From the NCBI GenBank assembly GCA_963827315.1, contig CAWHAL010000004.1, positions 221,829 to 285,828 on the forward strand: a stretch of DNA of 64,000 nt, read 5' to 3'. Shown in pieces: positions 3,413-55,645 of this stretch. Within the stretch, counting starts at the first letter, position 1; the number at the start of each line of letters is the position of its first letter. Source of the stretch: an uncultured Planctomycetota bacterium (GTDB taxonomy: Bacteria; Planctomycetota; Phycisphaerae; Sedimentisphaerales; Anaerobacaceae). The notes beneath the pieces are model-generated. The model was not told where the DNA came from. It did not search any database and was given only the letters and a program-made list of their open reading frames with translations. Made by a program: the position numbers and the translations under genes.

Positions 3413-6212
<2,800 letters not shown>

Positions 6213-10997: not shown

Positions 10998-11675
10998 CTA
11001 CATAGTCGCCTCATCTTTGGTACCAGCGCTCTTTCTACCCTGCGTGGCTGCCTGCAACAGAATCGTTACACCCAGAGCTGCCAGGACAACCCCCGAGACA
11101 AGGATTGTACGCTGCGTAGAAAGAAGCACAAGGTAGAATGCGGTTACCACGCAGCCCGCGAAGCTGGCCACCGTCGAGAGCGCAAGAACCAGCCCCGTAT
11201 TGAGTCCGGAATCGCTCGCTCGTGTTGTCAGCCAGCGCACCGCCGTGGGCGAAACCGTCCCGAGCAGCAGGGTCGGCCCGCCGAACAGAATAAGGGCAGC
11301 TAAAAGAGAGCCCCATTTCTCGTCCAACCCAATATTGAATATCCCGTCGCACACAGGCTCTGTGAAAAAAGGCATAGCGCACAGCCACGCGCCCGCCGCA
11401 ATCAGGCTGCCCCCCAGCATCAGTTTGCTGCTGGCTTTTCTGGAAAGCCATCCGCCGAGCATATAACCAGCCGAAAGGCTGAGCAGGAAAACCCCGATTA
11501 CGCTGCCCATTACCACATATACAGCACTGCCAAAATATGGGGCGAGCACTCGAACTGCGAGGATTTCCATTTCCATCACGAACCAGCCGCAGCCGCACGC
11601 GATAAGGACTATCGCTACGGCCCGCAGCTTTCGCCCATTTTCCCAGTCTGCATTTTTGGATGATTGATGCCCCAT
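10998..11675 (-). CDS. polytopic membrane protein resembling the N-terminal domain of fused MFS/spermidine-synthase proteins
   Basis: About 6 TM helices. The motif ILAVRVLAPYFGSAVYVVMGSVIGVFLLSLSAGYMLGG is typical of the membrane part of fused SpeE-like proteins (memory). Confidence 0.6.
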   Translation of the reverse strand: MGHQSSKNADWENGRKLRAVAIVLIACGCGWFVMEMEILAVRVLAPYFGSAVYVVMGSVIGVFLLSLSAGYMLGGWLSRKASSKLMLGGSLIAAGAWLCAMPFFTEPVCDGIFNIGLDEKWGSLLAALILFGGPTLLLGTVSPTAVRWLTTRASDSGLNTGLVLALSTVASFAGCVVTAFYLVLLSTQRTILVSGVVLAALGVTILLQAATQGRKSAGTKDEATM

Positions 11676-11684
11676 CTAAGCGGC

Positions 11685-11761
11685 AATCTCAATCCCCCAA
11701 CAGTAAATTGTCAATAGTAAATAATAAATTGAAATCCCCTATCCCCTATACGCTAATTTTT
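11685..11761. repeat. heptad-phased tract (11 units, AAT-family plus ATCCCCT x2)
   Basis: AATCTCA ATCCCCC AACAGTA AATTGTC AATAGTA AATAATA AATTGAA ATCCCCT ATCCCCT ATACGCT AATTTTT. Confidence 0.8.
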
Positions 11762-11852
11762 TTCCTTGCTTTTTCTGACAATTCCGGCCATAACAGTTAT
11801 CACAGAAGCCTAAACCTAAGTAAATGATTATCAAAATCGAAGGAGAAATATT

Positions 11853-12569
11853 ATGAACACGAAATTGTTTCCAGCCTGCGGCCAAGCTGCCGTTATTTTG
11901 GTATTGACAGTTCTGCTCATTTGGCCGGCTCAAGTCTTGGCGGTGGACGCAAATTCAACTGCCGCGAAGGATGTTAATTCGGCCGGGGCGGCAGAGCTTA
12001 AGCCCATCCAGCTTCCCAAGCCGCAGATGGACGGCGGTAAACCCCTGATGCAGGCGTTGAAGGAGAGAAAGTCTTCGCGCGCATTCAGCACTGAGAATCT
12101 GCCCCCGCAGGTGCTTTCAAATATGCTCTGGGCAGCCTGCGGAATCAATCGCCCCGACGGAAAGCGTACTGCACCGACCGCGATGAACAAGCAGGAAATC
12201 GATGTCTACGTTGCCACTGCCGAAGGCCTTTACCTCTATGATGCGAACTCACATTCGCTAAAACCTGTCCTGGCAGGAGACATCCGTGCTGTAACCGGCC
12301 GTCAGCCGTTCGTCAAAGATGCGCCCGTAAACCTCATCTTTGTCGCCGACCTTTCAAAGATGGGCAATTCCCCAGCCGACCAAAAGGATTTCTATGCAGC
12401 TACCGACACGGGCTTCATCAGCCAGAATGTTTATCTGTACTGTGCTTCTGAAGGATTGGCGACTGTTGTGCGCGGCGCTGTTGACAAACCGGCCCTGGCC
12501 AATGCGATGAAACTGCGACCCGACCAAAAGGTCGTCCTCACACAAACGGTGGGCTATCCGAAAAAGTAG
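11853..12569 (+). CDS. secreted nitroreductase-family (SagB/ThcOx-like) protein
   Basis: Signal peptide. RKSSRAFSTENLPPQVLSNMLWAACGINR, and a C-terminal nitroreductase fold (TDTGFISQNVYLYC). Confidence 0.7.
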   Translation: MNTKLFPACGQAAVILVLTVLLIWPAQVLAVDANSTAAKDVNSAGAAELKPIQLPKPQMDGGKPLMQALKERKSSRAFSTENLPPQVLSNMLWAACGINRPDGKRTAPTAMNKQEIDVYVATAEGLYLYDANSHSLKPVLAGDIRAVTGRQPFVKDAPVNLIFVADLSKMGNSPADQKDFYAATDTGFISQNVYLYCASEGLATVVRGAVDKPALANAMKLRPDQKVVLTQTVGYPKK

Positions 12570-12662
12570 TAATTGCGCAAAATAGCAAACCTTGTGCCGC
12601 ATTAACGCTGCGTTTAGCGCGGTATGCGTTATTTGGTGCGTTGGGGGCCAATTGCGTAGGCA

Positions 12663-14177
12663 TTACCGCACAATCCTAAACGCATAGGCGTATTGACACG
12701 GTCTGGTGGCAGGAAGGCTGATGTGTAAGCCTTTTGCGTCACGTGTCCATTTCAGTTCGCCCTGATGCCCCAATAGGGTCACCGCTCTTATAGCCCCCAC
12801 CGAAGGCTCCCGTGTGGACAATGATTCGATGTGTAAGACATTGTCCCTGGGCCAATCCAGCGCAATGGCGTAGAGTGTTTGGCCGTCTTTGGATTGGGTA
12901 AAACGAATATCACGCTCAGAGAAGGGCGAAACCCGGGCACGCGGTTCCGGTTTTTTTACCGGCCCTTCGCCGAAGCGTATCCACGGACGCGAACCAAAGA
13001 TAGCCTCGCCGTTGATGCGGTTCCACTCGCCCAGCTCCCTGAGGATACTTATCGTATCGTCATCAAATGTGCCGTCCGCCCTCGGCGGGACATTCAGCAG
13101 CAAGTTGCCGTTTTTGCTGACTATATCCACAAACTTATCTATCAGTTGGTCTGCTGAAGTGTACGGCACTCTTGTATCATAGCCCCACGGTCCAATCGAG
13201 TCGTCGGTTTGCCAGGGCTGTTCGAGCAATCTGTCCGGCACATTTCGTTCGTAGTCGAGCGTTGCGATACCGGGGACATACCAGCCCTTGTTGTTGTCCT
13301 GACGCATTGCTGAGGTCTTATATGTTAAGACGACCTCCTGACGGCCATGGTGTCGCTGCTGGCCGGCATTATAATAGTGTGCCACAACCTCAAAACCGGT
13401 TTGTCCCTTGTCGTCGAGGAAGGGGATAGCTCCGTCAAGGTACACCAAATCCGGCTGGTAGTTATCTATCAAGTCGAGCGTACGCAGCTTCCACGACTGT
13501 TTCCACCACGCTGGCGATACAGCGGGATAACGCATTGCCGTATCGCCGTGTGTCGGATGGTAGAGTTCTTCAAATTCCTTTAGGTTGCCGTCATACGGCA
13601 CGCCTGTGTAAGGGCCGTTGGAATCGGCACCATGGCTGGTCTGGAACCAGCAGTAGCTGTTAGCTAAGTGATTAGTCACTCCAAAGCGCAGTCCGTAAGC
13701 CAGCGTCGCCTGGCGCATCATTCCGATTAAATCCTTCTTCGGGCCCATATTCACGGCGTTGAATCGCTGGTATTTCGAATTCCACAGGTCAAAACCGTCG
13801 TGATGTACCGCACAAGGCGTGAAGTAGCGGGCCCCCGCATCCTTGAAAAGCTTAAGCCACGCATTGGGGTCAAACTTTTCTGCTTTCCATAAGGGTATAA
13901 AATCCTTGTACCCGAATTTGCTCGGATGGCCGTAAGTCTTGACGTGATGTGCATAGACCGGGTCGTTTTGGTCGTACATCCTGCGCCCGTACCACTCGCC
14001 GCGTTCCGCCACAGAATACACCCCCCAGTGCACATAAATCCCCAACTTGGCGTCGCGGAACCATTCAGGACATTCATATTGTTTCAACGACTGCTCATTT
14101 GGCTTAAAATGCACATCTGCACACGATAGCTGAACCAGTGGCAAAAGCATCAAAGCCAACAGCATTCTTGTCTTCAT
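12663..14177 (-). CDS. alpha-L-fucosidase, GH29
   Basis: WFRDAKLGIYVHWGVYSV and HHDGFDLWNS. Start set at MKTRMLLALMLLPL (signal peptide) with GGGAG upstream. The ORF track start is 14222. Confidence 0.85.
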   Translation of the reverse strand: MKTRMLLALMLLPLVQLSCADVHFKPNEQSLKQYECPEWFRDAKLGIYVHWGVYSVAERGEWYGRRMYDQNDPVYAHHVKTYGHPSKFGYKDFIPLWKAEKFDPNAWLKLFKDAGARYFTPCAVHHDGFDLWNSKYQRFNAVNMGPKKDLIGMMRQATLAYGLRFGVTNHLANSYCWFQTSHGADSNGPYTGVPYDGNLKEFEELYHPTHGDTAMRYPAVSPAWWKQSWKLRTLDLIDNYQPDLVYLDGAIPFLDDKGQTGFEVVAHYYNAGQQRHHGRQEVVLTYKTSAMRQDNNKGWYVPGIATLDYERNVPDRLLEQPWQTDDSIGPWGYDTRVPYTSADQLIDKFVDIVSKNGNLLLNVPPRADGTFDDDTISILRELGEWNRINGEAIFGSRPWIRFGEGPVKKPEPRARVSPFSERDIRFTQSKDGQTLYAIALDWPRDNVLHIESLSTREPSVGAIRAVTLLGHQGELKWTRDAKGLHISLPATRPCQYAYAFRIVR

Positions 14178-14297
14178 AGATGTTTTCTCCCTTATTGACA
14201 CATAGCGCCTGGGCAAAACCATAATATTTAGCAGGGGTAATTCTTTCCCGCCATTTATGGCGGGCTTTGCCGTTACTTACCATCGCAATCCCAACCC

Positions 14298-14395
14298 AAA
14301 TAATAAATCGTCAATGGTAAATAATCAATTGATTCCGCCACGCCTTGGGGTCCAAATCGAAAATCTATCCCCAATCCCCACCCCCTAATTATTAT
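14298..14395. repeat. heptad-phased tract, 14 units in one unbroken phase
   Basis: AAATAAT AAATCGT CAATGGT AAATAAT CAATTGA TTCCGCC ACGCCTT GGGGTCC AAATCGA AAATCTA TCCCCAA TCCCCAC CCCCTAA TTATTAT. Confidence 0.8.
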
Positions 14396-15432
14396 TCAAT
14401 ATCAGCGATGTCGCTCTCCGGCTCACCGACTAAATAGATTCTGTTTTTGCCGCTTCGTTTTGCATCTAATAGTGCATTATCCGCCTGCAAAAACAGCTCC
14501 TGTACCGTCGAGCCGTCTCGCGGGAAGCTCGCTAATCCGCCGCTGATTGTCAATACACCTTTTCCTTCCGGCCCCAATGAATCGAATTCCGTTTTTTGAA
14601 GTTCCTGTCTGAGCCGCTTCGCTATGAAAATAGCATCTTTCGGATGATCCGCTGCGGCTGAGCGTCTCTCCGCCTGCGGGCCGCTTTGCTGAATGCGTGG
14701 CTCATTCCAGAAGATAACGGAAAATTCATCGCCGCCGACTCTGCCGACAACATCGTGCGGCCGACAACATCGCCGCATCAGTATCGCTGCCTGCCTTAGG
14801 ATTTCGTCGCCGGCCGAATGGCCGTAAACATCATTGTAGTGCTTGAAGTTATCGATATCAAAGACAAGAAGTGTTACCCTTCCCCCACCCTGCTTTGCGC
14901 GTTCTATGACTTGTTTGCAGAATTCCCAGATGTACCTTCTGTTTTTCAGCCCCGTCAGTTCATCCTCGGTAGCAAGCTTTTCAAGCTCCTTTATTTTCGT
15001 TTCCGTGCCGGCGTCGATACGGACAGGCTCCTCAGCCGCAACCCCGACCGCCGGCGGAGCCGCCAGTTTACGGAATCTGCTAAATGGAAGCGGGCAAATC
15101 ACATAGTCATCGGCGATGTTCGCGTCTTCTAAGCCTCCGGCAACCAGCTCGATTGCTGCCGGCTCCTGATACATCTGCGCCAGCAGGACAATCTTAGCGC
15201 CGGCGGCGACTTGCCGAAGGCGTTTCAATGCCGAACCTGACTTGCTCAGCGAATCCGATATCACTACACCAATCGCTTGAAAGGTTTCTTTGCCTGCCGC
15301 CTCTATTGCATCACCAATGTCCCTACAAACCTGGCAGCGGGGGCCCTCGATAGCAGCGGTGTCTAAAAAGGCCTTGCTGATATCGCCTACAAGCAGGATT
15401 CTGTAATCGTTTTTACCAGATAAAGCTGCCAT
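14392..15432 (-). CDS. diguanylate cyclase (GGDEF) with degenerate receiver-like N-domain
   Basis: GGDEF with an RxxD I-site (RPHD-VVGRV-GGDEF). The N-domain is ILLVGD...VISD...ICPL, where the conserved DD pair and the Lys of a CheY receiver are replaced. Start set at MAALSGKNDYRILLVGD. Confidence 0.85.
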   Translation of the reverse strand: MAALSGKNDYRILLVGDISKAFLDTAAIEGPRCQVCRDIGDAIEAAGKETFQAIGVVISDSLSKSGSALKRLRQVAAGAKIVLLAQMYQEPAAIELVAGGLEDANIADDYVICPLPFSRFRKLAAPPAVGVAAEEPVRIDAGTETKIKELEKLATEDELTGLKNRRYIWEFCKQVIERAKQGGGRVTLLVFDIDNFKHYNDVYGHSAGDEILRQAAILMRRCCRPHDVVGRVGGDEFSVIFWNEPRIQQSGPQAERRSAAADHPKDAIFIAKRLRQELQKTEFDSLGPEGKGVLTISGGLASFPRDGSTVQELFLQADNALLDAKRSGKNRIYLVGEPESDIADIE

Positions 15433-15576
15433 AACCGATAGTTCTTTGTTGGACTCGAAATATTGAATTTTACGGTAAAATAGCGCAAAAACTGGCTGAT
15501 TATCGGTCCCTATCTTACCACAAACGCCCCGAAAAATCAACGCCCCGTCGCCGCGGCTCTTGGGGCGCAGGCAACT

Positions 15577-31533: not shown

Positions 31534-31589
31534 TCTGTCATCTGCCGTCTGTCGTCTGTCTTCTGCCTTCTGTCATCTGTTCTTTCGTC
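31534..31589. repeat. heptad tract TCTGNNN x8
   Basis: TCTGTCA TCTGCCG TCTGTCG TCTGTCT TCTGCCT TCTGTCA TCTGTTC TTTCGTC. Confidence 0.85.
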
Positions 31590-33643: not shown

Positions 33644-33678
33644 TGGTAACTGGTTATTGGTTACTGGTAACGGGTTAC
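33644..33678. repeat. heptad tract TGGTWAY x5 with nested palindromes
   Basis: TGGTAAC TGGTTAT TGGTTAC TGGTAAC GGGTTAC. The outer inverted repeat is ATGGTAAC...GTTACCAT. Confidence 0.85.
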
Positions 33679-37159: not shown

Positions 37160-37614
37160 CTGACGCCGGGGTGCAAACGCGAGGTCCGCTTATACCATTT
37201 CCGCGAAACGCGGCGTATTTAGCCTTGGGTTTTACCCTGGGTTGCAAACGTGAGGATTGCTTTCCCCTTCAACGCCCGCCGTTTGGGCGTTTGTATTTAG
37301 CCCCGGCCTCCGGCCGGGGTTGCCTGCGCGAGGTCCGCTTATACCATTTCCGCGAAACGCGGCGTATTTAGCCTTGGGTTTTACCCTGGGTTGCAAACGT
37401 GAGGATTACTTTCCCCTTCAACGCCCGCCGTCCGGGCGTTTGTATTTAGCCCCGGCCTCCGGCCGGGGTTGCCCACGCCTGCCCTGCTTGCCCCGTGAGA
37501 CGTGTCGTGTACTGTCTCACTGGGGTGAGACTTGCCCTGTGAGATGCGCAGTGTGCTATCTCATCAGGGTGCGCCGTATGCTATCCCATCGGGGCGAGGA
37601 ACGCTTAAATTTAC

Positions 37615-37808: not shown

Positions 37809-39890
37809 ATGGGCGTATGTGATGCGCATGACGCAGCTTGGGGATGCAAGAAAACGCTCGCAGAAGGTGAAGGTTTTGCGATCGCTGCTAGGTTCATGCA
37901 GGACTCGCCGATTCAGGAGAAACTTGTCGATAAATCCTTGGATGTATACAAGAGACTTGGCATGCCGTTGTCTAGGCAAAACTGTAAGCTTCAAATCGAG
38001 AGTATACAGGGTGCCACACTATGGTTAATCTGTGAGCAGTGCGCAAACCTGTTGAAGCTAAGCAGTGCCGACAAAGAGGCGGCGAGGGAAGCTGCCCGAA
38101 GATGGTGGAAGGACAAGAGTGCACCTGGTCATATGCCTGGACAAAAGACGACAGAAAGGAACAAAAAGCCAGCATATTTCATTATTTATGGAAATGGATT
38201 CACTCCATCAGCGATACAGGCGCATCTTATCCTGCGGTATTGGGTTGAAAAGGTAAAAGGCAAACTTGGCGAAGATATATGGGAACATATCAGGATGGAG
38301 CTGACAAGTAAAGAACACGGATCTAGGATGGTATTCACAGAGGTTTTCACTGAGGAGAAAAAGGTTCATCGGGGTCAGTTGGTAGATGGCCTGTTTCTAC
38401 TAGACTACAAAACAGGACAAGATATGGCACTTATTGCAGTGTGGGCGCCGGAAGATTCAGAGTATGTCGGCTCTTTATTGAAACCAAACCAAGCCGTGAA
38501 GCCGATGGCAATCGCCGAGGCCGAGATCGAGCAGATTCAGAAACAGGTTTGTGAAAAACCAAAAAACATTTACGAGATTCTCATGGACGCGATCTGCTGT
38601 GTCATGTGTGCTGATGGAAATGCGACGCCAAAGGAGCAAGAAGCGATTCATATCATTTTGGGTAAAACCAAAGCTTCTTGGACAAAAGAAGACATAGATA
38701 AGCGAATTGACGGCTTCCTGGAGCGAATCAAGATGGATGGTATGGACAAGATTGTTCAAGCGACCTGTGAGAATCTGCCCGAATTTAAGAGTAAAAAAAG
38801 ACGGGAGGTCTTGACGTTTTGTCTCGAATTTATTGCGCGTGCCGATGGAATAGTTGATGAAAAGGAAAAACAACTTATTGAAAAATTCAAGTCCGCTCTT
38901 GGAGTAGAGTCTGGCGATTCTGCCCCAAAGAGTGGGAGTCAGTCAAGCAAAGAAGAAAGGAAAACGGAAGAAGAAGAGCAAACAACTGTAAATTCCAGCC
39001 CATCAGATGATATCAATGCGAATAAATCTTCTGAACCGATTTTGCCTGATGGTAGTGTAGACGACCGTATCGATGGTTTATGGGACAGTGCTAAAAAGCT
39101 GGGTTGGTCGGAAACAGACTGCGAGAAAGAGATATCGATATATACAGAAATTCTCGGATTGGTTAATAAAAGTTCGAAATATAACGCATGTGCATCATTG
39201 CGCAATAGAGCAATTTCTTATAGGAATTTAAAGAAGTTCGACGAGGCTTTAAATGATCTTCAACATGAGTTGGAAATTGCTCAAAAAATCGGGGACCGAT
39301 ATCGCGTTATGGAATGCCAGAGAGTCATGAAAGAGACCAAACAAATGAAACAGGATGCTGAAATAAAAGCAAGCGGTGGTGAGAAGTCTTTAAAGGTCCA
39401 GTCCATGGAGCAACAGGCAAGTAAACTCTCTGACTCTGGTGCCGAGGGGGATGCAGCCTTTAAGAGTCTTTTCGAGGATTTAGCAAATAGCGATAGCGAT
39501 ATTCGTGCAAAGGCCTCGCAGCTATTGGCACACTCTTCCGAGGCTAGCAGCAAATTAATTAATGTGTATCAGGAGTCCCTTGTCGCAGATCCGCGAAAGA
39601 GTGTCCTTGCAGGGCGAGTGCTTGGTCGAAAACTTGACGGTGGAAGGCAAGACATGATTCCTGAACAAGTGACTATGCTGCTGTTCAGAGTCAAAATTGC
39701 ATTTACCCCGTGCGTTTGTGGACGCTGTGGCGAGCTGAATGTTGGTATCCCTGTACCTGAAAAAGGTTTGTATATTGGATTCTATGGCCAAACCGATGAC
39801 AAACATGGAGCATACGCTCTGCCTGTACTTTGTGATTACTGCGGCAAGGAATTCTTCATAGCGTGGGATAGTGACCCGCGAGGGCAATAA
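37809..39890 (+). CDS. hypothetical multidomain protein: TerB-like domain, acidic/Ser linker, TPR-like helices, C-terminal CxxC...CxxC zinc ribbon
   Basis: 693-aa ORF with GGAG 7 nt upstream of the ATG. ILMDAICCVMCADGNATPKEQEAIHIIL ... FIARADGIVDEKEKQLIEKF looks like a TerB-type fold. NRAISYRNLKKFDEALNDLQHELEIAQKIGD is TPR-like. CVCGRCGE...CDYCGKEF is a zinc ribbon. Confidence 0.6.
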   Translation: MGVCDAHDAAWGCKKTLAEGEGFAIAARFMQDSPIQEKLVDKSLDVYKRLGMPLSRQNCKLQIESIQGATLWLICEQCANLLKLSSADKEAAREAARRWWKDKSAPGHMPGQKTTERNKKPAYFIIYGNGFTPSAIQAHLILRYWVEKVKGKLGEDIWEHIRMELTSKEHGSRMVFTEVFTEEKKVHRGQLVDGLFLLDYKTGQDMALIAVWAPEDSEYVGSLLKPNQAVKPMAIAEAEIEQIQKQVCEKPKNIYEILMDAICCVMCADGNATPKEQEAIHIILGKTKASWTKEDIDKRIDGFLERIKMDGMDKIVQATCENLPEFKSKKRREVLTFCLEFIARADGIVDEKEKQLIEKFKSALGVESGDSAPKSGSQSSKEERKTEEEEQTTVNSSPSDDINANKSSEPILPDGSVDDRIDGLWDSAKKLGWSETDCEKEISIYTEILGLVNKSSKYNACASLRNRAISYRNLKKFDEALNDLQHELEIAQKIGDRYRVMECQRVMKETKQMKQDAEIKASGGEKSLKVQSMEQQASKLSDSGAEGDAAFKSLFEDLANSDSDIRAKASQLLAHSSEASSKLINVYQESLVADPRKSVLAGRVLGRKLDGGRQDMIPEQVTMLLFRVKIAFTPCVCGRCGELNVGIPVPEKGLYIGFYGQTDDKHGAYALPVLCDYCGKEFFIAWDSDPRGQ

Positions 39891-40040
39891 TAGGGACAGC
39901 TATCGTTTTTTACAGCCCCCTCGTCCCTTTTCCTTGTCCACTCCGCTGACTTCTCCGCCCGCGACTTCAATTTTAGTTTTACGTCGCCGCGCACGGGCCA
40001 CGAGCAACGAAATTTTCCTTCGGCCAAACCAAAAAATACA

Positions 40041-40089
40041 GTGTTAATCTGTGTTAATCCGTGTCTAAAAATCTGTGTAATCAGTGATT
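40041..40089. repeat. short GTG-initiated ~10-bp repeats
   Basis: GTGTTAATCT GTGTTAATCC GTGTCTAAAAATCT GTGTAATCA GTGATTAAT. Confidence 0.6.
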
Positions 40090-40127
40090 AATTTTTCTTT
40101 GTGCCTTTTGTGTTTTAAAAAACCCTG

Positions 40128-40328
40128 CTATCTCTTCTCTTGATGGCCGAGTATTCTGGCCGGTAGAAACAGAATAGATTTAATCAGGGCCAAAAACGCA
40201 TCGGCGGCAATACCCACAATACGAAATGGAATCGACAAAAGCCATATAACCGGCCATAATACCAATGCCAACAATGCTATCGGCCAGCACAACGCCAGCA
40301 AAATCGCCCACAACAGTAAGACAAGCAA
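40128..40328 (-). CDS. possible small hydrophobic membrane protein
   Basis: 66-aa ORF with two strongly hydrophobic helices. The only start is a TTG, and the AGGAGA is 16 nt away, so the call is weak. Confidence 0.35.
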   Translation of the reverse strand: MLVLLLWAILLALCWPIALLALVLWPVIWLLSIPFRIVGIAADAFLALIKSILFLPARILGHQEKR

Positions 40329-40628
40329 TACCTTAATTGTATGTCTCCTAATAAATAAGCTGCGTCCATATTATAACGTGCCCCAACATTAAAAACCAGT
40401 AGATTTGATTCGATATCCTTAAAAAAACTTGTATTTTCAGTTAAATTGCGCAGCCATCGGCCAAACTATGCAGCGGAATCCACGTCTTAAAAATCCCCGC
40501 CAAAATCGCCATTCGTAGCGCAGCGCAAGCCTCAGGATGATTTTGCAAAAGTCGCCGTTCGTCTTCTGACTTGTGCTCTTATGCACTTACGACTTTTGCT
40601 CTTGCACACCTACGCTGTTGCTGCCGGC

Positions 40629-40663
40629 GAGATACGAGATACAAGCGACGAGCCACGATTCAC
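40629..40663. repeat. heptad tract, GAGATAC family
   Basis: GAGATAC GAGATAC AAGCGAC GAGCCAC GATTCAC. Confidence 0.8.
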
Positions 40664-40721
40664 AAATCCCCCATTCTCAAAACCTTCACTTAAAAATCCT
40701 TGCTTATTAAGTCACGACATT

Positions 40722-40756
40722 AGTATATATGCATATACTAATATACTTTCTGACGC
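40722..40756. repeat. 35-bp perfect direct repeat, copy 1
   Basis: AGTATATATGCATATACTAATATACTTTCTGACGC. Contains the 12-bp palindrome TATATGCATATA. Confidence 0.9.
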
Positions 40757-40894
40757 TAGGTGGTATTGACACCTACTGAAAAAACATCTAAAAAATTCCC
40801 ACCTCAAATCCCTCTTTCAAAAAAACCATGTTTCTTAAACTCCTCATTCCCAAAACCCTCGTTCTCAAAACTCTGATTCTTAAAGCAGTCCGTA

Positions 40895-40929
40895 AGTATA
40901 TATGCATATACTAATATACTTTCTGACGC
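40895..40929. repeat. 35-bp perfect direct repeat, copy 2
   Basis: Identical to 40722-40756 and 173 bp downstream of it. Confidence 0.9.
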
Positions 40930-40965
40930 CACCCCGGCAAAACCCGCACTTAAAATTTCTTCGGC

Positions 40966-40993
40966 GACATACGATATACGCACGACGCAACAC
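40966..40993. repeat. heptad tract, GAnAnAC family
   Basis: GACATAC GATATAC GCACGAC GCAACAC. Confidence 0.7.
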
Positions 40994-41007
40994 GAAGTTA
41001 TAGTTTA

Positions 41008-41042
41008 CCCCGTGAGATGTGTCGTTTACTATCTAACTGGGG
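41008..41042. repeat. dispersed copy of the CCCCGTGAGAY hairpin family
   Basis: CCCCGTGAGAT-GTGTCGTTTACT-ATCTAACTGGGG. Same architecture as 37077-37111, 37491-37525 and 37535-37569. Confidence 0.75.
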
Positions 41043-41085
41043 CTGCATCCAAAAAACATCGTAAAATCTCGTGCTTTGGTAATTC

Positions 41086-41168
41086 GAACTTGTCCGCCGC
41101 AGGCGGATTTGTTTAGGACTTGTCCGCCGTCCGTCTGGCGGATTTAGAATTTAGAGATTCGGATTTAG
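41086..41168. repeat. two ACTTGTCCGCC...GGCGGA hairpins followed by GATTTAG heptads
   Basis: TCCGCC-GCA-GGCGGA at 41093-41107 and TCCGCC-GTCCGTCT-GGCGGA at 41123-41142, then GATTTAG AATTTAG AGATTCG GATTTAG at 41141-41168. Confidence 0.8.
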
Positions 41169-41179
41169 AGAAAAGAATA

Positions 41180-41198
41180 CCTAAGTATCTTAGGTATC
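41180..41198. repeat. palindrome CCTAAG-TAT-CTTAGG + TATC, copy 1
   Basis: Seen directly. Candidate operator. Confidence 0.8.
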
Positions 41199-41265
41199 AC
41201 TCCTAACAGTTCAGCGACAAGGTGTATGAAAAAGTTAAGATGTATAAACAAGTTGGCTATCAATG

Positions 41266-41284
41266 CCTAAGTATCTTAGGTATC
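41266..41284. repeat. palindrome CCTAAG-TAT-CTTAGG + TATC, copy 2
   Basis: Identical 19-mer, 86 bp downstream of copy 1. Confidence 0.8.
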
Positions 41285-41362
41285 GCTCTCGGCTAATCAA
41301 TGCTTATGAACTGCGAACTACCAACCACAAACTTGCTCGTCGCGGCCCCCGCCAGCAACAAA

Positions 41363-41397
41363 GTCTGGCGTCTGTGGTCTGGTGTCTGGAGTCTTTT
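41363..41397. repeat. heptad tract GTCTGNN x5
   Basis: GTCTGGC GTCTGTG GTCTGGT GTCTGGA GTCTTTT. Confidence 0.8.
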
Positions 41398-41460
41398 GGC
41401 CGCGCATGTCGCTGCGCGACCAAATGCGCAAGGGGGTACTTCAATCACTGTCCAAAACGC

Positions 41461-41541
41461 ACCAATTTCTTGCAATTTTTGCTAATTTTTTGAAATTTTT
41501 ACGAATTTTTGCAAATTTCTTACAATTTTTTGCATTTTTTT
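41461..41541. repeat. eight helically phased T-tracts (9-11 bp period)
   Basis: ACCAATTTCT TGCAATTTTT GCTAATTTTTT GAAATTTTT ACGAATTTTT GCAAATTTCT TACAATTTTTT GCATTTTTTT. Confidence 0.85.
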
Positions 41542-41732
41542 CGCTCAACTTGCGCGTTTGATGCGAAATTTTACTTTGCCCCGCTTGCCCAATTGCTACA
41601 TCTTAACGCCCACCCCAATTTTATCCGCCTGTGACGGACCCCCGTTTTTAACCCAAAAACCAGCTTAGGCCCCTAAAAATCAGCCCCAAATTTTCCCAAA
41701 ATTCCGGATTGTCAAGGTTGGATTATGAATGC

Positions 41733-41760
41733 TTGCCTTTTAGTGAAAAATGTTTATAAT
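41733..41760 (+). promoter_or_regulatory. putative sigma70-like promoter of the SPOR-gene operon
   Basis: TTGCCT-N16-TATAAT, about 45 nt upstream of ATG 41804. Confidence 0.35.
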
Positions 41761-47749: not shown

Positions 47750-47755
47750 CTCGAT

Positions 47756-47811
47756 ATTGATTATTTACTATTTGCTATTGACTATTGTTTCGGTTGTCAA
47801 TATTCAATTCA
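47756..47811. repeat. heptad tract (8 units), AAT family on the minus strand
   Basis: Plus strand reads ATTGATT ATTTACT ATTTGCT ATTGACT ATTGTTT CGGTTGT CAATATT CAATTCA. Minus strand reads AATAGTC AATAGCA AATAGTA AATAATC AAT. Confidence 0.8.
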
Positions 47812-50385
47812 AAGGGTTCTGGCTACCTCAATAATTTCATAGAAGTCAAGGACATCGTCAATTTTGACATCGTCAAATTTAGCCAGTTTTATGCCGCATT
47901 CAAGTCCGGCCTTGACCTCTCGGGCGTCATCTTTGAAGTGCCTCAGCGAATCTATCGACAAACCATCTCTGGTTACTATATTGTCGCGTATCAGTCGGAC
48001 TTTCGCATTTTTAGTTACCGAGCCGTCGCTGACGAAACAGCCTGCGACGGTACCAACTTTTGAGACTTTGAAGGTATTTCTGACCACAGCTCTGCCGACC
48101 GTCTTCTCCTGCTTCTCGGGTTCCAGTAAACCTGCCATAGACTTCCGCAAATCTTCGGTTATGCGGTAGATTATGGTGTAGAGCCGGATGTCCACGCCTT
48201 TGACTTCGGCGAGTTTCGATACGTGCTCTTCGGTGACGACATTGAAGCCGATAATAATCGCATTGGAAGCTTCGGCAAGCAGGCAATCACCTTCTGTGAT
48301 TCCGCCGACAGCTGCGTGCAGAACCTTGATTTTTACCTCGTCGGTGCTCAGTTCGGATAAATATTTCGTCAAGACATCAACCGAACCCTGTGCGTCGGCT
48401 TTGATAATTATATTCAGCTCCTTGATATTGCCAGCCTCAATCTGGGCGAACAGATTGTCGAGTGTTATCTGCGTTCTTTTGGCAAGTGTGCTTTCTCTCG
48501 AACGTATTTTACTTTCTTCAGCGGCATCTTTGGCCTTATTGATGTCGTCGAGGCAATAAAATCTGTCACCTGCCTGGGGGACATCGCTAAGGCCTGTAAT
48601 CTCGACAGGCATAGAACTGGCGGCGACTTTTACGTTTTGGCCGTAGCTGTTACTTAGAGTTTTAACTCTGCCGTAGGTGGCTCCTGCCAGAACCACATTG
48701 CCTTTTGTCAATTGGCCCTCTTTGACCAGCAACGTCGCCACGGGACCTCGCTGTGATGACATCTTTGCCTCGACGACCCATCCTGTTGCCGGGATTGTGT
48801 CGTCGGCCTTGAGCTCAAGCAGCTCAGCGACATAATCGAGATGCTCAAGCAGCGCATCAATACCTTCACCTGTAACAGCGCTTGTCTTGACAACTTCGGT
48901 CTGGCCGCCCCATTCAGCCGGTGTCAATCCGTGTTCGGACAACTGTGAGTAAACACGGTTGTAATTGCAGCCGGGCAGGTCGATTTTATTTAAAGCCACT
49001 ATGACAGGCACATTGGCTGCCTGGGCGTGATGTATGGCCTCTATTGTCTGCGGCATTACGCCGTCGTCGGCAGCCACAACGAGCACCACCACGTCCGTCA
49101 TATTCGCGCCACGAGCTCGCATAGCAGTGAAAGCCTCGTGTCCCGGCGTGTCGAGGAAAGTTACCGTGTGTCCGCCGATAGTAGTCTGATACGCACCGAT
49201 ATGCTGAGTAATGCCGCCGGCTTCGCTGGCTGCTACCTGAGTCGAACGAATTCTGTCGAGCAGACTGGTCTTGCCATGATCAACGTGGCCCAGCATCGTA
49301 GCGACGACGGGACGCTTCTGGAGGTTCTTACGCTCGCACCGGTCGAATTCGCTTTGTATCTGCTCCTGCAGGTTTTTCCTGTGCTCTACCACTAATTCAG
49401 TGCCGAAATCCAAGGCGAGCAGTTCGGCAGCATCTGAACCTATGGTCTGATTGGCTGAGGCCATTATACCCTGCTGCATCAGTTTGGTGATGAGCTCAGG
49501 CGATTTGACCGCTAAGGCAGCAGCCAAATCCTTGACGGTAATTGGCTCATTTATGGTGACCTTTGCCGGCCGCGCAGTGGTAACTGCCGCCTGCATCGAT
49601 TTGGCGGCGATTTTCCGTATGGGTCTTAGTCTGATGCGTTCGCCAACAGCAGCATCAAGCCGGGCCCGCCTTTCCTCCATATCTTTTTGCCGGCGTTGAC
49701 TGGCGAATCTAAGTCTTTTCGCAACTTCCGTATCCGGGTCGTATCGTCGGCGACCGTGCGTTCGTTCACCATGCCATTCGGGAGCGCCTTTTTTGCGTTT
49801 TGCTGCAGTCGCAGTAAGTTGCTCCTCGTCCAGCTCATCAGGAAACAAAGGTTCGGTAACAGGAACACCGTACTTCGCCCTTGGTTTTGGTCTTGGGGGA
49901 GGTTTTAACGGTTCCGGTGCTTCAACTCTGACAATCTGAGGACCAGATAATTGGGCAGGCTCCGGTTTTTCCAGCATCGGGCCTGCGGGTACTATTGGCT
50001 CCGGTTTCGGCTTCTCGGGTTTTTCCGCTTTATGTGGTTTTATTATTGTTGGCTTTTCTTCGGTCGCGGCGGCAGCTTCTGTGGCAGGCTCAGCAGCAAC
50101 CTCTGTGGGCTCATCTTTCTTTTTCTCTTTAGCTTTTTTTGGCGGATGTTCTTTCGCTGGTTTTTTCTTGATTCGCGCCTTGCTCAGGTCGACCTTCTCT
50201 GTCGTCTCAACCGTTGTGATGTTATCGCCTTCGCTGAACCATTCACGAATAGTTGCCGCCAGGCCGGCCGATATCACCGACATATGGTTTTTGACGTCCA
50301 GACCCTCGTCGCGACACTTTTTGATGATGGCGGAGCTTTTTACACCAAGCTCGTTTGACAAAATATAGACCCTTGTGGTGGCCAT
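47809..50385 (-). CDS. infB: translation initiation factor IF-2
   Basis: G domain ([26 protein letters not shown]), a Pro/Lys/Glu-rich N-terminal region, and C-terminal domains. Confidence 0.95.
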
Positions 50386-54214: not shown

Positions 54215-55645
54215 ATGGTTAGTCATGCGGAATACCAAACACAAAGAAGGTTAAAGCCAGACACAATCAGGGACAGGGGATACTTCGCCGGTAAAAAAGT
54301 TCTGGTTATGGGCCTGGGGCGGTTCGGCGGCGGCGTTGATGTCGCCAAGTTTGCCGCCGGCGCCGGCGCAAAGGTAATAGTAACAGATATTGCTGCCGCC
54401 GAGCGGTTAAGCGGTTCACTAAAGCAGTTGGAAGGATTAAATAACGTAGAATATCACCTCGGCTCACATATCGCCGGTGATTTTGAGCGGGCCGATATTA
54501 TCGTAGTCAATCCTGCTGTGCCTGCCGATAATGAATTTCTGGAGATTGCCCGCCGAAACAACAAACTTATCACTTCGCAGGTGAATATTTTTTTTGAACT
54601 GTGCGCCGCAACGATAATCGGCATAACAGGAGCCAACGGCAAAAGCACGACAGCAGCACTCACAGCGCATTTGCTCAGAAGTACGAGAAGCGAGATACGA
54701 GATACGAGAAACGAAAACGTCTGGCTGAGCGGCAACATCGGCGACCAGCCGTTGCTGATGGTAGCGGACCAGATTGGCCCTGATGACCTCGTTGTATTAG
54801 AACTGTCGAGTTTTCAGCTTGAGCAGTTGGCTCAAATTCAAAAGGTGCCGCAGGTTGCCTTGCTGACAAACCTTACGCCGAACCACCTTGACCGTTACGG
54901 AACGTTCGCCAGTTACTGCCGGGCCAAAGAAAATATATTCAAATACCAGAAGCCGAACGGGAAATCGCTGCCGGTTTCGTTTTTTAACGTCGAAGATAAG
55001 ATAGGGGCCGAATGGTTTGAAAAATACAGCAAAGATAAGAGGAGAACTTGTCTGAAGTTTTCTGCTGATGATGTAAGTGGAGAAATTCGTTCTTGTTTCA
55101 CACTGCTTGGCCGGGCCAATCTTTCAAACCTTGCCGCTGCAGTTGCCGTCGCGAAGTACTTCGGCGCGGATGAGGAGGCGATAAAGAATTGTCTGCTTGG
55201 ATTCAAGCCGCTGCCGCACAGACTCGAGTTGATATCGCAGATAAACGGCGTATCCTGGTATGACGATTCCAAAGCCACCACACCCGACAGCGCAATCGCT
55301 GCGCTGGAGGCATTCGAACAGCCGATAATAATAATAGCCGGCGGATACGATAAGAATATATCATTCGACAAGTTTGGCGAAGAAGTTGCCCATAAGGCAA
55401 AGGCGGCGGTTCTGATTGGGCAAACCAGAGAAAAAATCGCGGCGGCGATACGGTCGAGCCGGGCAGATGTTCTAACGGTTGAGTTTGCCCAATCACTGGC
55501 CGAGGCTGTGGGGCTGGCCGAGCGGCTGAGCACACCCGGTGACGTCGTTTTGCTCAGCCCAGCTTGCGCCAGCTTCGATATGTTTGAAAACTTTCAGCAG
55601 CGGGGCCGGGTATTTCGCGAGTTGGTCCGAAAAATCAGCGGTTAA
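54215..55645 (+). CDS. murD: UDP-N-acetylmuramoylalanine--D-glutamate ligase
   Basis: VLVMGLGRFGGG, P-loop GITGANGKSTT, GNIG, LPHRLE, and the Mur ligase C-domain. Start set at ATG 54215 (the ORF track GTG is 54191). Confidence 0.9.
   Translation: MVSHAEYQTQRRLKPDTIRDRGYFAGKKVLVMGLGRFGGGVDVAKFAAGAGAKVIVTDIAAAERLSGSLKQLEGLNNVEYHLGSHIAGDFERADIIVVNPAVPADNEFLEIARRNNKLITSQVNIFFELCAATIIGITGANGKSTTAALTAHLLRSTRSEIRDTRNENVWLSGNIGDQPLLMVADQIGPDDLVVLELSSFQLEQLAQIQKVPQVALLTNLTPNHLDRYGTFASYCRAKENIFKYQKPNGKSLPVSFFNVEDKIGAEWFEKYSKDKRRTCLKFSADDVSGEIRSCFTLLGRANLSNLAAAVAVAKYFGADEEAIKNCLLGFKPLPHRLELISQINGVSWYDDSKATTPDSAIAALEAFEQPIIIIAGGYDKNISFDKFGEEVAHKAKAAVLIGQTREKIAAAIRSSRADVLTVEFAQSLAEAVGLAERLSTPGDVVLLSPACASFDMFENFQQRGRVFRELVRKISG
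54685..54719. repeat. heptad tract (GAGATAC family) inside murD
   Basis: GAGAAGC GAGATAC GAGATAC GAGAAAC GAAAACG, which encodes most of the RSEIRDTRNEN segment. Confidence 0.8.

Follow-up and report, generated by a model that had tools for sequence, protein, structure and literature searches.

A probable patchwork of decayed heptanucleotide repeats between a GGDEF gene and a fucosidase gene in an uncultured Sedimentisphaerales planctomycete

An uncultured planctomycete carries, between a GGDEF diguanylate cyclase gene and an alpha-L-fucosidase gene, a 98-base tract that an earlier note read as 14 heptamers in one unbroken phase and compared with the short tandemly repeated repetitive (STRR) sequences of cyanobacteria. 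Here we analyse this tract (tract A, 14298-14395) within its 64-kb stretch of DNA (the window) and conclude that it is probably a patchwork of short, decayed heptanucleotide repeats of the STRR or long simple-sequence-repeat (SSR) type, in a Sedimentisphaerales lineage that accumulates such arrays. Its periodicity resides in two blocks, the left of which has a counterpart in a second tract of the window (tract B, 11683-11757) and in many other genomes. We propose that the arrays would arise and change by replication slippage, one seven-base unit per step, and would afterwards decay through point mutation; no specific function would be needed to account for tract A. Slippage in unit steps is apparent at orthologous loci of relatives, and we infer it for the blocks of tract A together with their decay. 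What emerges is a known repeat class in a new host, not new biology, and no new kind of element.

The letters of 14298-14395 and their parse into heptamers match the window exactly, but the periodicity is unevenly distributed. Measured as identity at lag 7 against 2,000 dinucleotide-preserving shuffles, the whole tract scores 0.43 compared with 0.26 for the shuffles (p = 0.0015, or p = 0.017 if lags of 2 to 14 are all considered). The left block (14298-14332) reaches 0.61 and the right block (14354-14395) 0.57, and the 21 bases between them (14333-14353) give 0.14, under the shuffle mean. Along the tract, identities between adjacent units, out of seven, run 5, 5, 4, 3 / 0, 1, 1, 0 / 6 / 2 / 6, 4 / 2. 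Because the signal is confined to the two blocks, the tract amounts to about 5 + 2 + 2.5 related units, not 14. Tandem Repeats Finder (TRF) called no array in 14298-14395 at score 30, the lowest threshold used.

A close relative clarifies the question of phase. Contig L182 (JGI Ga0646000_010410; L-numbers denote the contigs and loci compared), with a fucosidase 97% identical to that of the window, has the same GGDEF-spacer-fucosidase order, and its spacer is identical apart from one substitution and one added C in GGACCCC(C)AAGG. This extra C, which falls in the middle segment, puts the two heptamer blocks out of phase, and their common phase in the window is, on this comparison, evidently a coincidence of the 21-base gap. 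Two periodic blocks thus remain of the 14 heptamers; the single phase does not, and the register that AAAT-type and CCCC-type units were said to keep across the divergent middle appears accidental.

The limits of the tract likewise call for revision. It does lie between the two genes named, both on the minus strand (open reading frame (ORF) list, Pfam), but it is not the spacer from GGDEF stop to fucosidase start. The GGDEF stop codon falls inside the last unit of the parse, and a 97%-identical fucosidase homologue, a gene call of 504 residues, starts 15 residues later than the longest ORF of the window. The true start is probably the ATG at 14177, which would make the spacer about 14178-14391, or 214 bases, and the 98-base frame an arbitrary cut.

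The left block is one copy of something larger. Together with its flanks, GCAATCnCAAnCCC to one side and ATCCCCnATCCCC...CTAATT to the other, it forms a module of about 75-105 bases, of which the window has two copies, and tracts A and B are best read as duplicates of this one small module. Tract B, with a lag-7 identity of 0.56 (p < 0.0005, shuffle test), sits between the divergent genes 10998..11675 (minus) and nitroreductase 11853..12569 (plus). A 38-nucleotide direct repeat of 84% identity links 11695-11732 with 14295-14332, exactly 2,600 bases apart. Common to both tracts are the left flank GCAATCnCAA..CCC (in B, GCAATCTCAATCCCCC at 11683-11698) and the right part ATCCCCnATCCCC...CTAATT, the C-rich counterpart in B being AATCCCCTATCCCC (11733-11746); many Planctomycetota copies of the module carry GCAATCTCAAnCC as the flank counterpart. 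Tract A has in addition a 34-base segment absent from B, namely the divergent middle and AAATCGAAAATCT, and the 3' end of its AAT block, AATCAATTGATT, is a 12-base palindrome. A search with the regular expression (GGGGAnn)x2 matched only A and B in the window and nothing in 664 kb of related DNA. The AAT block belongs to the AATAGTC family, the commonest unit class of the lineage, of which a third array (47755-47789) ends 9 nucleotides before the rbfA start and consists of the array only, without the module flanks.

To follow the block further afield, its 21-mer AAATnGTCAATnGTAAATAAT (AAATNGTCAATNGTAAATAAT) was scanned in species-representative genomes, a collection from which the window itself is absent, with at least 100 stretches found; these were selected by the pattern itself, and taxon proportions are indicative only. 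Planctomycetota labels (Pirellulales, Phycisphaerae, Sedimentisphaerales) account for 36 of the 100 matches listed, several with 4-6 copies per assembly. Another 9 come from Akkermansia- or Verrucomicrobiia-labelled metagenome-assembled genomes (MAGs), in which the 21-mer lies within a longer multi-copy repeat, and the rest are mostly Bacteroidota, with AAATCGT/CAATCGT units in tandem and often paired in inverted orientation. Across the Planctomycetota and Verrucomicrobiota among these matches, several assemblies hold 4-8 copies. The Planctomycetota flanks resemble those of the window, with CCAATAGT before the 21-mer and (A/C)AATTGA followed by GCAATCTCAAnCC after it. Among the listed matches, each of the 39 Planctomycetota copies lies between genes. 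Of 35 left-hand neighbours 24 are minus-strand genes, and of 31 right-hand neighbours 20 are plus-strand genes, from which the module seems to prefer promoter-containing spacers, without strict orientation or distance.

At six of the Planctomycetota loci compared, the module spacers are mosaics of short repeats that include the heptamers GAGAATT, CTCAACA and GAAATTT as well as hairpin-like units, GTCATTGCGAG...GCAATCTC or GTCATTCTGA...AGAATCTC, whose stem halves differ complementarily between loci. Rabbit-gut MAGs labelled Akkermansia (eight loci) contain a repeat roughly 150 bases long that includes AAATCGTCAATCGTAAATAAT and is present at least 9 times, with conserved flanks on both sides (...GCGCGCAGCGCGCT... 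and ...CAACGCTTTGCGTTGAACGATGTGCCGTT...). In the MAG NIOZ-UU13 (L047) the 21-mer belongs to a multi-copy element longer than 130 bases; positions 1-335 and 3851-4149 of that locus are inverted repeats of 98-100% identity around 3.5 kb, perhaps a composite element or an assembly artefact. Within the window, 14337-14355 in the middle of tract A (GCCACGCCTTGGGGTCCAA) and 13856-13874 in the fucosidase coding region form a 19-nucleotide direct repeat of 89% identity that is probably due to chance.

Period-7 arrays pervade the lineage. In the 664 kb of relatives, made up of 80 related metagenome contigs, TRF called 97 arrays of period 7, of which 69 have at least three copies and 41 at least four, a density of about 10 arrays of at least three copies per 100 kb. 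No other period exceeds 11 arrays with at least three copies, the next peaks falling at periods 14 and 21; an Escherichia coli control of 50 kb only is illustrative. The unit classes are diverse, the commonest being AATAGTC (10 arrays), ACGAGAT (7), AGCATCG (6) and AATAATC (5). Although crude ORFs make up 87% of this DNA, 55 of the 91 distinct arrays lie outside them. The window conforms: the autocorrelation of its crudely delimited intergenic DNA is maximal at lag 7 (0.279, compared with about 0.25-0.26 at neighbouring lags), so the excess of 7-base periodicity that the earlier note had made a test of its reading is present both here and, as the dominant period, among the relatives. Besides the arrays of Table 1, the window contains further, shorter ones of period 7 (TRF). 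At 33644-33678 the two unit types are almost reverse-complementary, and the array could fold on itself. One array (54682-54714) is, to judge from its reading frame, tolerated inside the coding sequence of murD. The idea that heptamers supply stop codons (TAA/TAG) in all three frames was discarded: tract A has stops in two frames only, and many arrays of the window, such as those of TCTGTCA and GTCTGGn, are free of them.

Comparison of orthologous sites points to rapid turnover. Upstream of orthologues of a gene for a 629-residue protein, seven contigs carry 1, 2, 2, 2, 3, 3 and 4 TCAATAG units between near-invariant flanks; in one contig the inverted partner array differs as well, by an indel of 7 bases. 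The second case is the spacer between infB and rbfA (47751-47808, minus strand; nusA-infB-rbfA operon), which in the window consists almost entirely of heptamers and precedes an rbfA without a clear Shine-Dalgarno site. It measures 59 nucleotides in the window and in L181 (translation initiation factor IF-2 93% identical), 45 in L187 (82%) and 29 in L186 (84%); L187 is thus shorter by exactly 14 nucleotides, or two units. At 72-74% IF-2 identity the heptamers in this spacer are unrelated (TCGTGAT/ATTCACG in L188, GTATCTC/ACGAGAT in L189). Past the stops of the orthologous GGDEF genes, relatives at about 60% identity have different arrays again, such as GTATCTC x7 in L117 and TGGTAAn x5 in L109; the fucosidase gene is absent at these loci, which are informative only for the DNA past the GGDEF gene. 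On contigs with 86% and 80% identical fucosidases the upstream DNA is unrelated. Whole-unit differences and unrelated arrays at orthologous sites suggest that arrays are gained, resized by seven bases and replaced fast, which, going by these alignments, is the behaviour expected from slippage. Length polymorphism among relatives, which the earlier note had looked to for tract A itself, was therefore found in 7-base steps at two other orthologous sites and not at tract A, for which L182 was compared.

At the first of these sites, 2718-2799 of L149 and six further contigs present an inverted AATAGTC-type pair around a conserved 22-nucleotide loop, placed between a stop codon and the start of the 629-residue gene, with a right arm of 1-4 TCAATAG units. 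The window lacks this inverted pair upstream of 17466.

Table 1. Coordinates of tract A, its module relatives, neighbouring genes, further arrays and candidate signals in the window (a point marks a feature without assigned strand)
Feature	Position	Strand	Basis and remarks
Left flank of module, GCAATCCCAACCC, conserved	14285..14297	+	A/B alignment; flanks of 21-mer in Planctomycetota loci
AAT-type block, five degenerate units: AAATAAT AAATCGT CAATGGT AAATAAT CAATTGA	14298..14332	+	Lag-7 identity, homologues
Non-repetitive middle, TTCCGCCACGCCTTGGGGTCC	14333..14353	.	Lag-7 identity 0.14; 1-base indel in L182
AAATCGA AAATCTA, two units, 6/7 identical	14354..14367	+	Unit comparison
C-rich units ATCCCCA ATCCCCA CCCCCTAA (complement GGGGATT type)	14367..14388	+	Regular expression
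Tract B: flank + CAACAGT AAATTGT CAATAGT AAATAAT AAATTGA + AATCCCCTATCCCC + ...CTAATT	11683..11757	+	Alignment, lag-7 identity
Third AAT-type array: AATAGTC AATAGCA AATAGTA AATAATC AATA (TRF TATTGAC x4.7)	47755..47789	-	TRF, alignments
GGDEF diguanylate cyclase gene	14392..15540	-	Pfam
GGDEF stop codon TAA	14392..14394	-	Inside last unit of 14-heptamer parse
Alpha-L-fucosidase gene, longest ORF	12663..14222	-	Pfam
Probable true fucosidase start ATG	14175..14177	-	Preceded by AAGGGAG, Shine-Dalgarno-like; gene call of 97% relative
Array TCTGTCA x6.7	31534-31580	.	TRF; about 135 nt upstream of DNA primase (dnaG) ORF
Array TGGTAAC/TGGTTAC x5	33644-33678	.	dnaG-rpoD spacer; about 25 nt upstream of probable sigma-70 GTG start (33703)
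Array GTCTGGn x4.7	41362	.	TRF
Array TACGAGA x4.7	54682-54714	.	TRF; within murD (Mur ligase) frame, right after P-loop, encodes ...RSTRSEIRDTRNEN...
Sigma-70-like promoter candidate TTGATT-17 nt-TATTAT	14300..14328	-	Consensus scan, 9/12 matches; within AAT block, toward fucosidase
Perfect 7-bp stem hairpin CCCGCCA-TAAA-TGGCGGG	14247..14264	-	Presumed fucosidase 5' leader; identical in L182
Imperfect 12-bp hairpin UUGGGG...CCCCAA, inner stem UAGAUU/GAUUUG	14345..14374	-	RNA fold; about 20 nt after GGDEF stop

The host is not a cyanobacterium. IF-2 of the window (47809..50385, minus) shares 91% identity with a protein labelled as coming from a Sedimentisphaerales MAG and 72-74% with proteins of other Sedimentisphaerales, Phycisphaerae and Planctomycetota, relatives of the lineage-specific 629-residue protein, for which an exact-sequence look-up gave no match, derive from sediment metagenomes, and the cyanobacterial HIP1 octamer GCGATCGC occurs once in 64 kb. 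These comparisons place the window in Sedimentisphaerales (Planctomycetota), and the earlier note, which saw nothing cyanobacterial outside the repeats, was right on this point. Cyanobacterial STRRs, as Mazel et al. reportedly set out in 1990, are tandem units of CCCCA(A/G)T, TT(G/T)GTCA or CAACAGT in heterocystous hosts. The TCCCCAA TCCCCA of tract A, taken for a permuted STRR1, is a true rotation of CCCCAAT (complement GGGGATT), but it comprises 1.5 units (ATCCCCAATCCCC / CCCCAATCCCC) and no STRR1 array. The CAACAGT and TTGTCAA of tract B, likened to STRR3 and STRR2, fare similarly: CAACAGT is there, but it and ATTGTCA are single units within the AAT-type array of the second module copy. A count of STRR1, STRR2 and STRR3 arrays, as the earlier note had proposed, found none of at least two units, either in the window or among the 664 kb from relatives. 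The repeats thus share with STRRs a tandem 7-base unit, a non-coding location and many dispersed copies (a per-genome count extrapolated from relatives), and lack both arrays of the canonical units and a cyanobacterial host. Of the proposal that STRR-like repeats occur in an unrelated lineage, the non-cyanobacterial host and the 7-base excess are upheld; the units are not STRR1-3, and the class is known elsewhere.

Against this background, two explanations of what the tract is can be largely set aside. That the heptamers are a chance parse of an AT-rich spacer with nothing repetitive in it is scarcely credible: the last unit and the middle 21 bases lack periodicity, the 1-base indel of L182 breaks the single phase and TRF is silent, as such a parse would have it, but both blocks, like the tract as a whole, score above the shuffles at lag 7, and the left block has homologues at 11698-11732, at 47755-47789 and in many genomes. 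For the two blocks a chance parse is refuted; it holds only against 14 continuous units. The chance that these are ordinary cyanobacterial STRRs, either on a cyanobacterial contig or in a spacer acquired from a cyanobacterium, is practically nil. The 1.5 STRR1 units of ATCCCCAATCCCC and the one CAACAGT of tract B would fit, but IF-2 and other proteins assign the window to Sedimentisphaerales, HIP1 is found once, tandem STRR1-3 arrays are missing from window and relatives alike, the module is common to other Planctomycetota and 1 of the 100 21-mer matches listed is cyanobacterial. It is refuted by the taxonomy and the array count.

More weight attaches to explanations in which the block does something or moves. 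We consider it unlikely that selection maintains the AAT-type block as a cis-element, whether a binding site or a promoter or translation-leader module read by a conserved factor; that its heptamer structure mirrors contact spacing and its unit number tunes expression, as has been proposed for the TAACTGA repeats of Beggiatoaceae and shown for TTTTGAT heptads of the cholera toxin promoter, is to be held equally unlikely. The recurrence of the 21-mer in at least 100 stretches (Planctomycetota 36 and Verrucomicrobiota 9 among the matches listed, several with 4-8 copies per assembly) speaks for such an element, as do its similar flanks (CCAATAGT before; (A/C)AATTGA and GCAATCTCAAnCC after), the intergenic position of 39 of 39 listed Planctomycetota copies with the left gene minus in 24 of 35, the persistence of infB-rbfA arrays across relatives at 1-14 nucleotides before starts poor in Shine-Dalgarno sites, and the sigma-70-like site within the block. 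However, orientation and gene distance are not fixed, the bias in orientation is slight (24 of 35), the matches were chosen by the pattern itself so that enrichment is not rigorous, and the unrelated heptamers of distant relatives at the same orthologous site argue against a sequence-specific reader. A mobile origin, with A and B as copies of a small non-autonomous element (akin to miniature inverted-repeat transposable elements or repetitive extragenic palindromes) and the heptamers as cargo, is improbable. Two copies 2,600 bases apart with common flanks and cores 84% identical, and related modules dispersed in single assemblies (NIOZ-UU13; the rabbit-gut Akkermansia-labelled bins), would suit it, but neither A nor B has ends paired by terminal inverted repeats, no target-site duplication is evident, the window has only two full copies at 84% identity, and the boundaries are fuzzy and vary among genomes. 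A riboswitch, small RNA or other structured regulatory RNA encoded by the spacer is very improbable. Two hairpins would fit, one with a perfect 7-bp stem (14247-14264) and one weaker (14345-14374), but the whole-spacer RNA fold is marginal (z = -2.0), and the spacer is not conserved upstream of the 86% and 80% identical fucosidases. With Rfam 15 no family reached the gathering score in the window except one tRNA, and none matched at E <= 1 in 11500-14600.

The patchwork of slipped and decayed arrays, which we prefer, leaves room for incidental roles. The AT-rich block would supply -35 and -10 hexamers for the fucosidase gene, and the GGGG/CCCC part would form a weak hairpin after the GGDEF stop. 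That the block serves as, or overlaps, the fucosidase promoter is possible though doubtful; it is suggested by the fact that the tract fills the only promoter-bearing space upstream of the gene. TTGATT-17-TATTAT is the only sigma-70-like site on the minus strand of the spacer, about 120 nucleotides upstream of the probable start. Several observations weigh against the preferred account or this extension of it. The region is not richer in promoter-like sites than shuffles are, and the planctomycete promoter consensus is not established; the counterpart in tract B is weaker (TTTATT-17-TACTGT, about 25 nucleotides upstream of ORF 10998..11675); and the third copy (47755-47789) is reversed relative to its flanking genes, so that one oriented function does not suit every copy. 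Tract A shows no unit-number polymorphism in the one close relative, L182. Neutral slippage by itself does not predict that the same 21-mer and similar flanks should recur in many Planctomycetota assemblies, which hints at selection or dispersal.

Other candidates were dropped. The hairpin at 14345-14374 is not followed by a U-run, and no intrinsic terminator of the GGDEF gene was called in 14223-14391. A G-quadruplex would have only the three G-runs of GGGGGTGGGGATTGGGG, too few for a four-run intramolecular form, and GGGGAnn pairs are absent from relatives.

Heptanucleotides, according to the survey of Mrazek et al. (2007) as relayed in PMC4679880 and PMC4692102, are the most abundant long SSR class in most repeat-rich prokaryotes, and slippage tied to the polymerase footprint was offered as the explanation; the two relaying papers place a heptamer excess in Cyanobacteria, Burkholderia, Xanthomonas, Actinobacteria, Beggiatoaceae and Bacteroidetes. 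Over-representation of heptamers has thus already been described in several phyla (PMC4679880, PMC4692102), and the suggestion of unusual biology falls. The arrays described here have what defines a heptanucleotide long SSR or variable-number tandem repeat, that is, over-represented period 7 and whole-unit differences between related genomes, although not at tract A, and they agree with the long SSRs of that survey in the dominance of period 7, intergenic enrichment, length variation among close relatives and an origin attributed to slippage. Unlike those, one unit family, even the same 21-mer, recurs here across phyla.

Individual systems offer closer parallels. Cyanobacterial STRRs, among which is GGGGA(T/C)T of Nostoc PCC 7120 (PMC4692102), are likewise non-coding 7-base tandems at many loci, with different units side by side and inverted arrangements, and the GGGGATT/AATCCCC unit of the window is identical to the Nostoc one. 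The lineage departs from them in its planctomycete host, its short (2-5 units in the window, up to about 10 in relatives) and degenerate arrays, and the AT-richness of its dominant units (AATAGTC, ACGAGAT). TAACTGA repeats of marine Beggiatoaceae, some Cyanobacteria and Bacteroidetes, for which a role in translation initiation has been proposed (MacGregor 2015, PMC4679880), also occur in 2-6 intergenic copies, often a few bases upstream of starts and beside essential genes, show 7-nucleotide indels between strains, mix with other heptamers and are scattered over unrelated phyla. Arrays in spacers between co-directional genes, infB-rbfA and others like it, stop 1-14 nucleotides short of starts without good Shine-Dalgarno sites, which is the situation behind MacGregor's proposal. 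In contrast to TAACTGA, the unit is another one, no orientation to starts dominates and tract A is antisense to both flanking genes. The GGGAATC repeats of Xanthomonas (Rehm et al. 2015, PMC4692102) are G-rich intergenic heptamers with inverted pairs and extensive length variation among related strains, as here, whereas GGGGGTGGGGATTGGGG has only three G-runs and G-rich units are rare in this lineage. AT-rich TTTTGAT heptads lie in the Vibrio cholerae ctxAB promoter, where their number is reported to affect expression (bioRxiv 10.1101/2021.05.14.444153); by analogy, heptads in or next to a promoter could set expression by unit number here too, although this promoter is assigned by consensus match only. 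Heptamer repeats are also reported to act in regulation at the Nostoc recF and recO promoters (preprint 10.1101/2022.06.06.494920).

A full-text literature search returned no paper linking heptamer repeats with Planctomycetota or Phycisphaerae, which is slight evidence that the extension of the host range to Planctomycetota is unreported. An order of uncultured sediment planctomycetes with about 10 arrays per 100 kb would join the known hosts. Why 7-base units prevail, and whether they are functional, is a small question that has stood open since the STRR work of 1990 and the survey of 2007; metagenomes hold natural variation in unit number beside essential genes, and so offer comparative material for telling slippage from function. 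The 98-base tract is in itself a weak, decayed example. The most interesting remainder is the recurrence of AATAGTC-type arrays across phyla and their persistence beside housekeeping genes. It is a long shot that arrays of the AATAGTC/AATCGTC type (typically AAATAGT-CAATAGT-AAATAAT) are a conserved functional cis-module common to Planctomycetota, Verrucomicrobiota and Bacteroidota, whose reader may be ribosomal protein S1 on leaders poor in Shine-Dalgarno sites, or a nucleoid or transcription protein. If so, unit number would amount to population-level tuning of housekeeping operons (nusA-infB-rbfA, dnaG-rpoD) and of glycoside hydrolase genes.

Elsewhere in the window, 39890-41750 is a gene-free, AT-rich region of 1.86 kb (43% GC) dense in varied short tandem repeats, including a 10-base unit, CAATTTTTTG, x7.9 (41463-41541), units of 23 and 15 bases (40568-40884) and heptamers at 40628 and 41362. 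Longer tandem repeats lie at 1598-2015 (123 bases x3.4, 86% matches) and 37178-37594 (149 bases x2, 97%), followed by repeats of 44 and 25 bases. Cumulative GC skew has its minimum (-0.55) near 20 kb, where the skew changes sign in coincidence with a switch of gene strand; dnaA is not among the neighbouring genes, which encode malic enzyme and a protein with a metallo-beta-lactamase fold.

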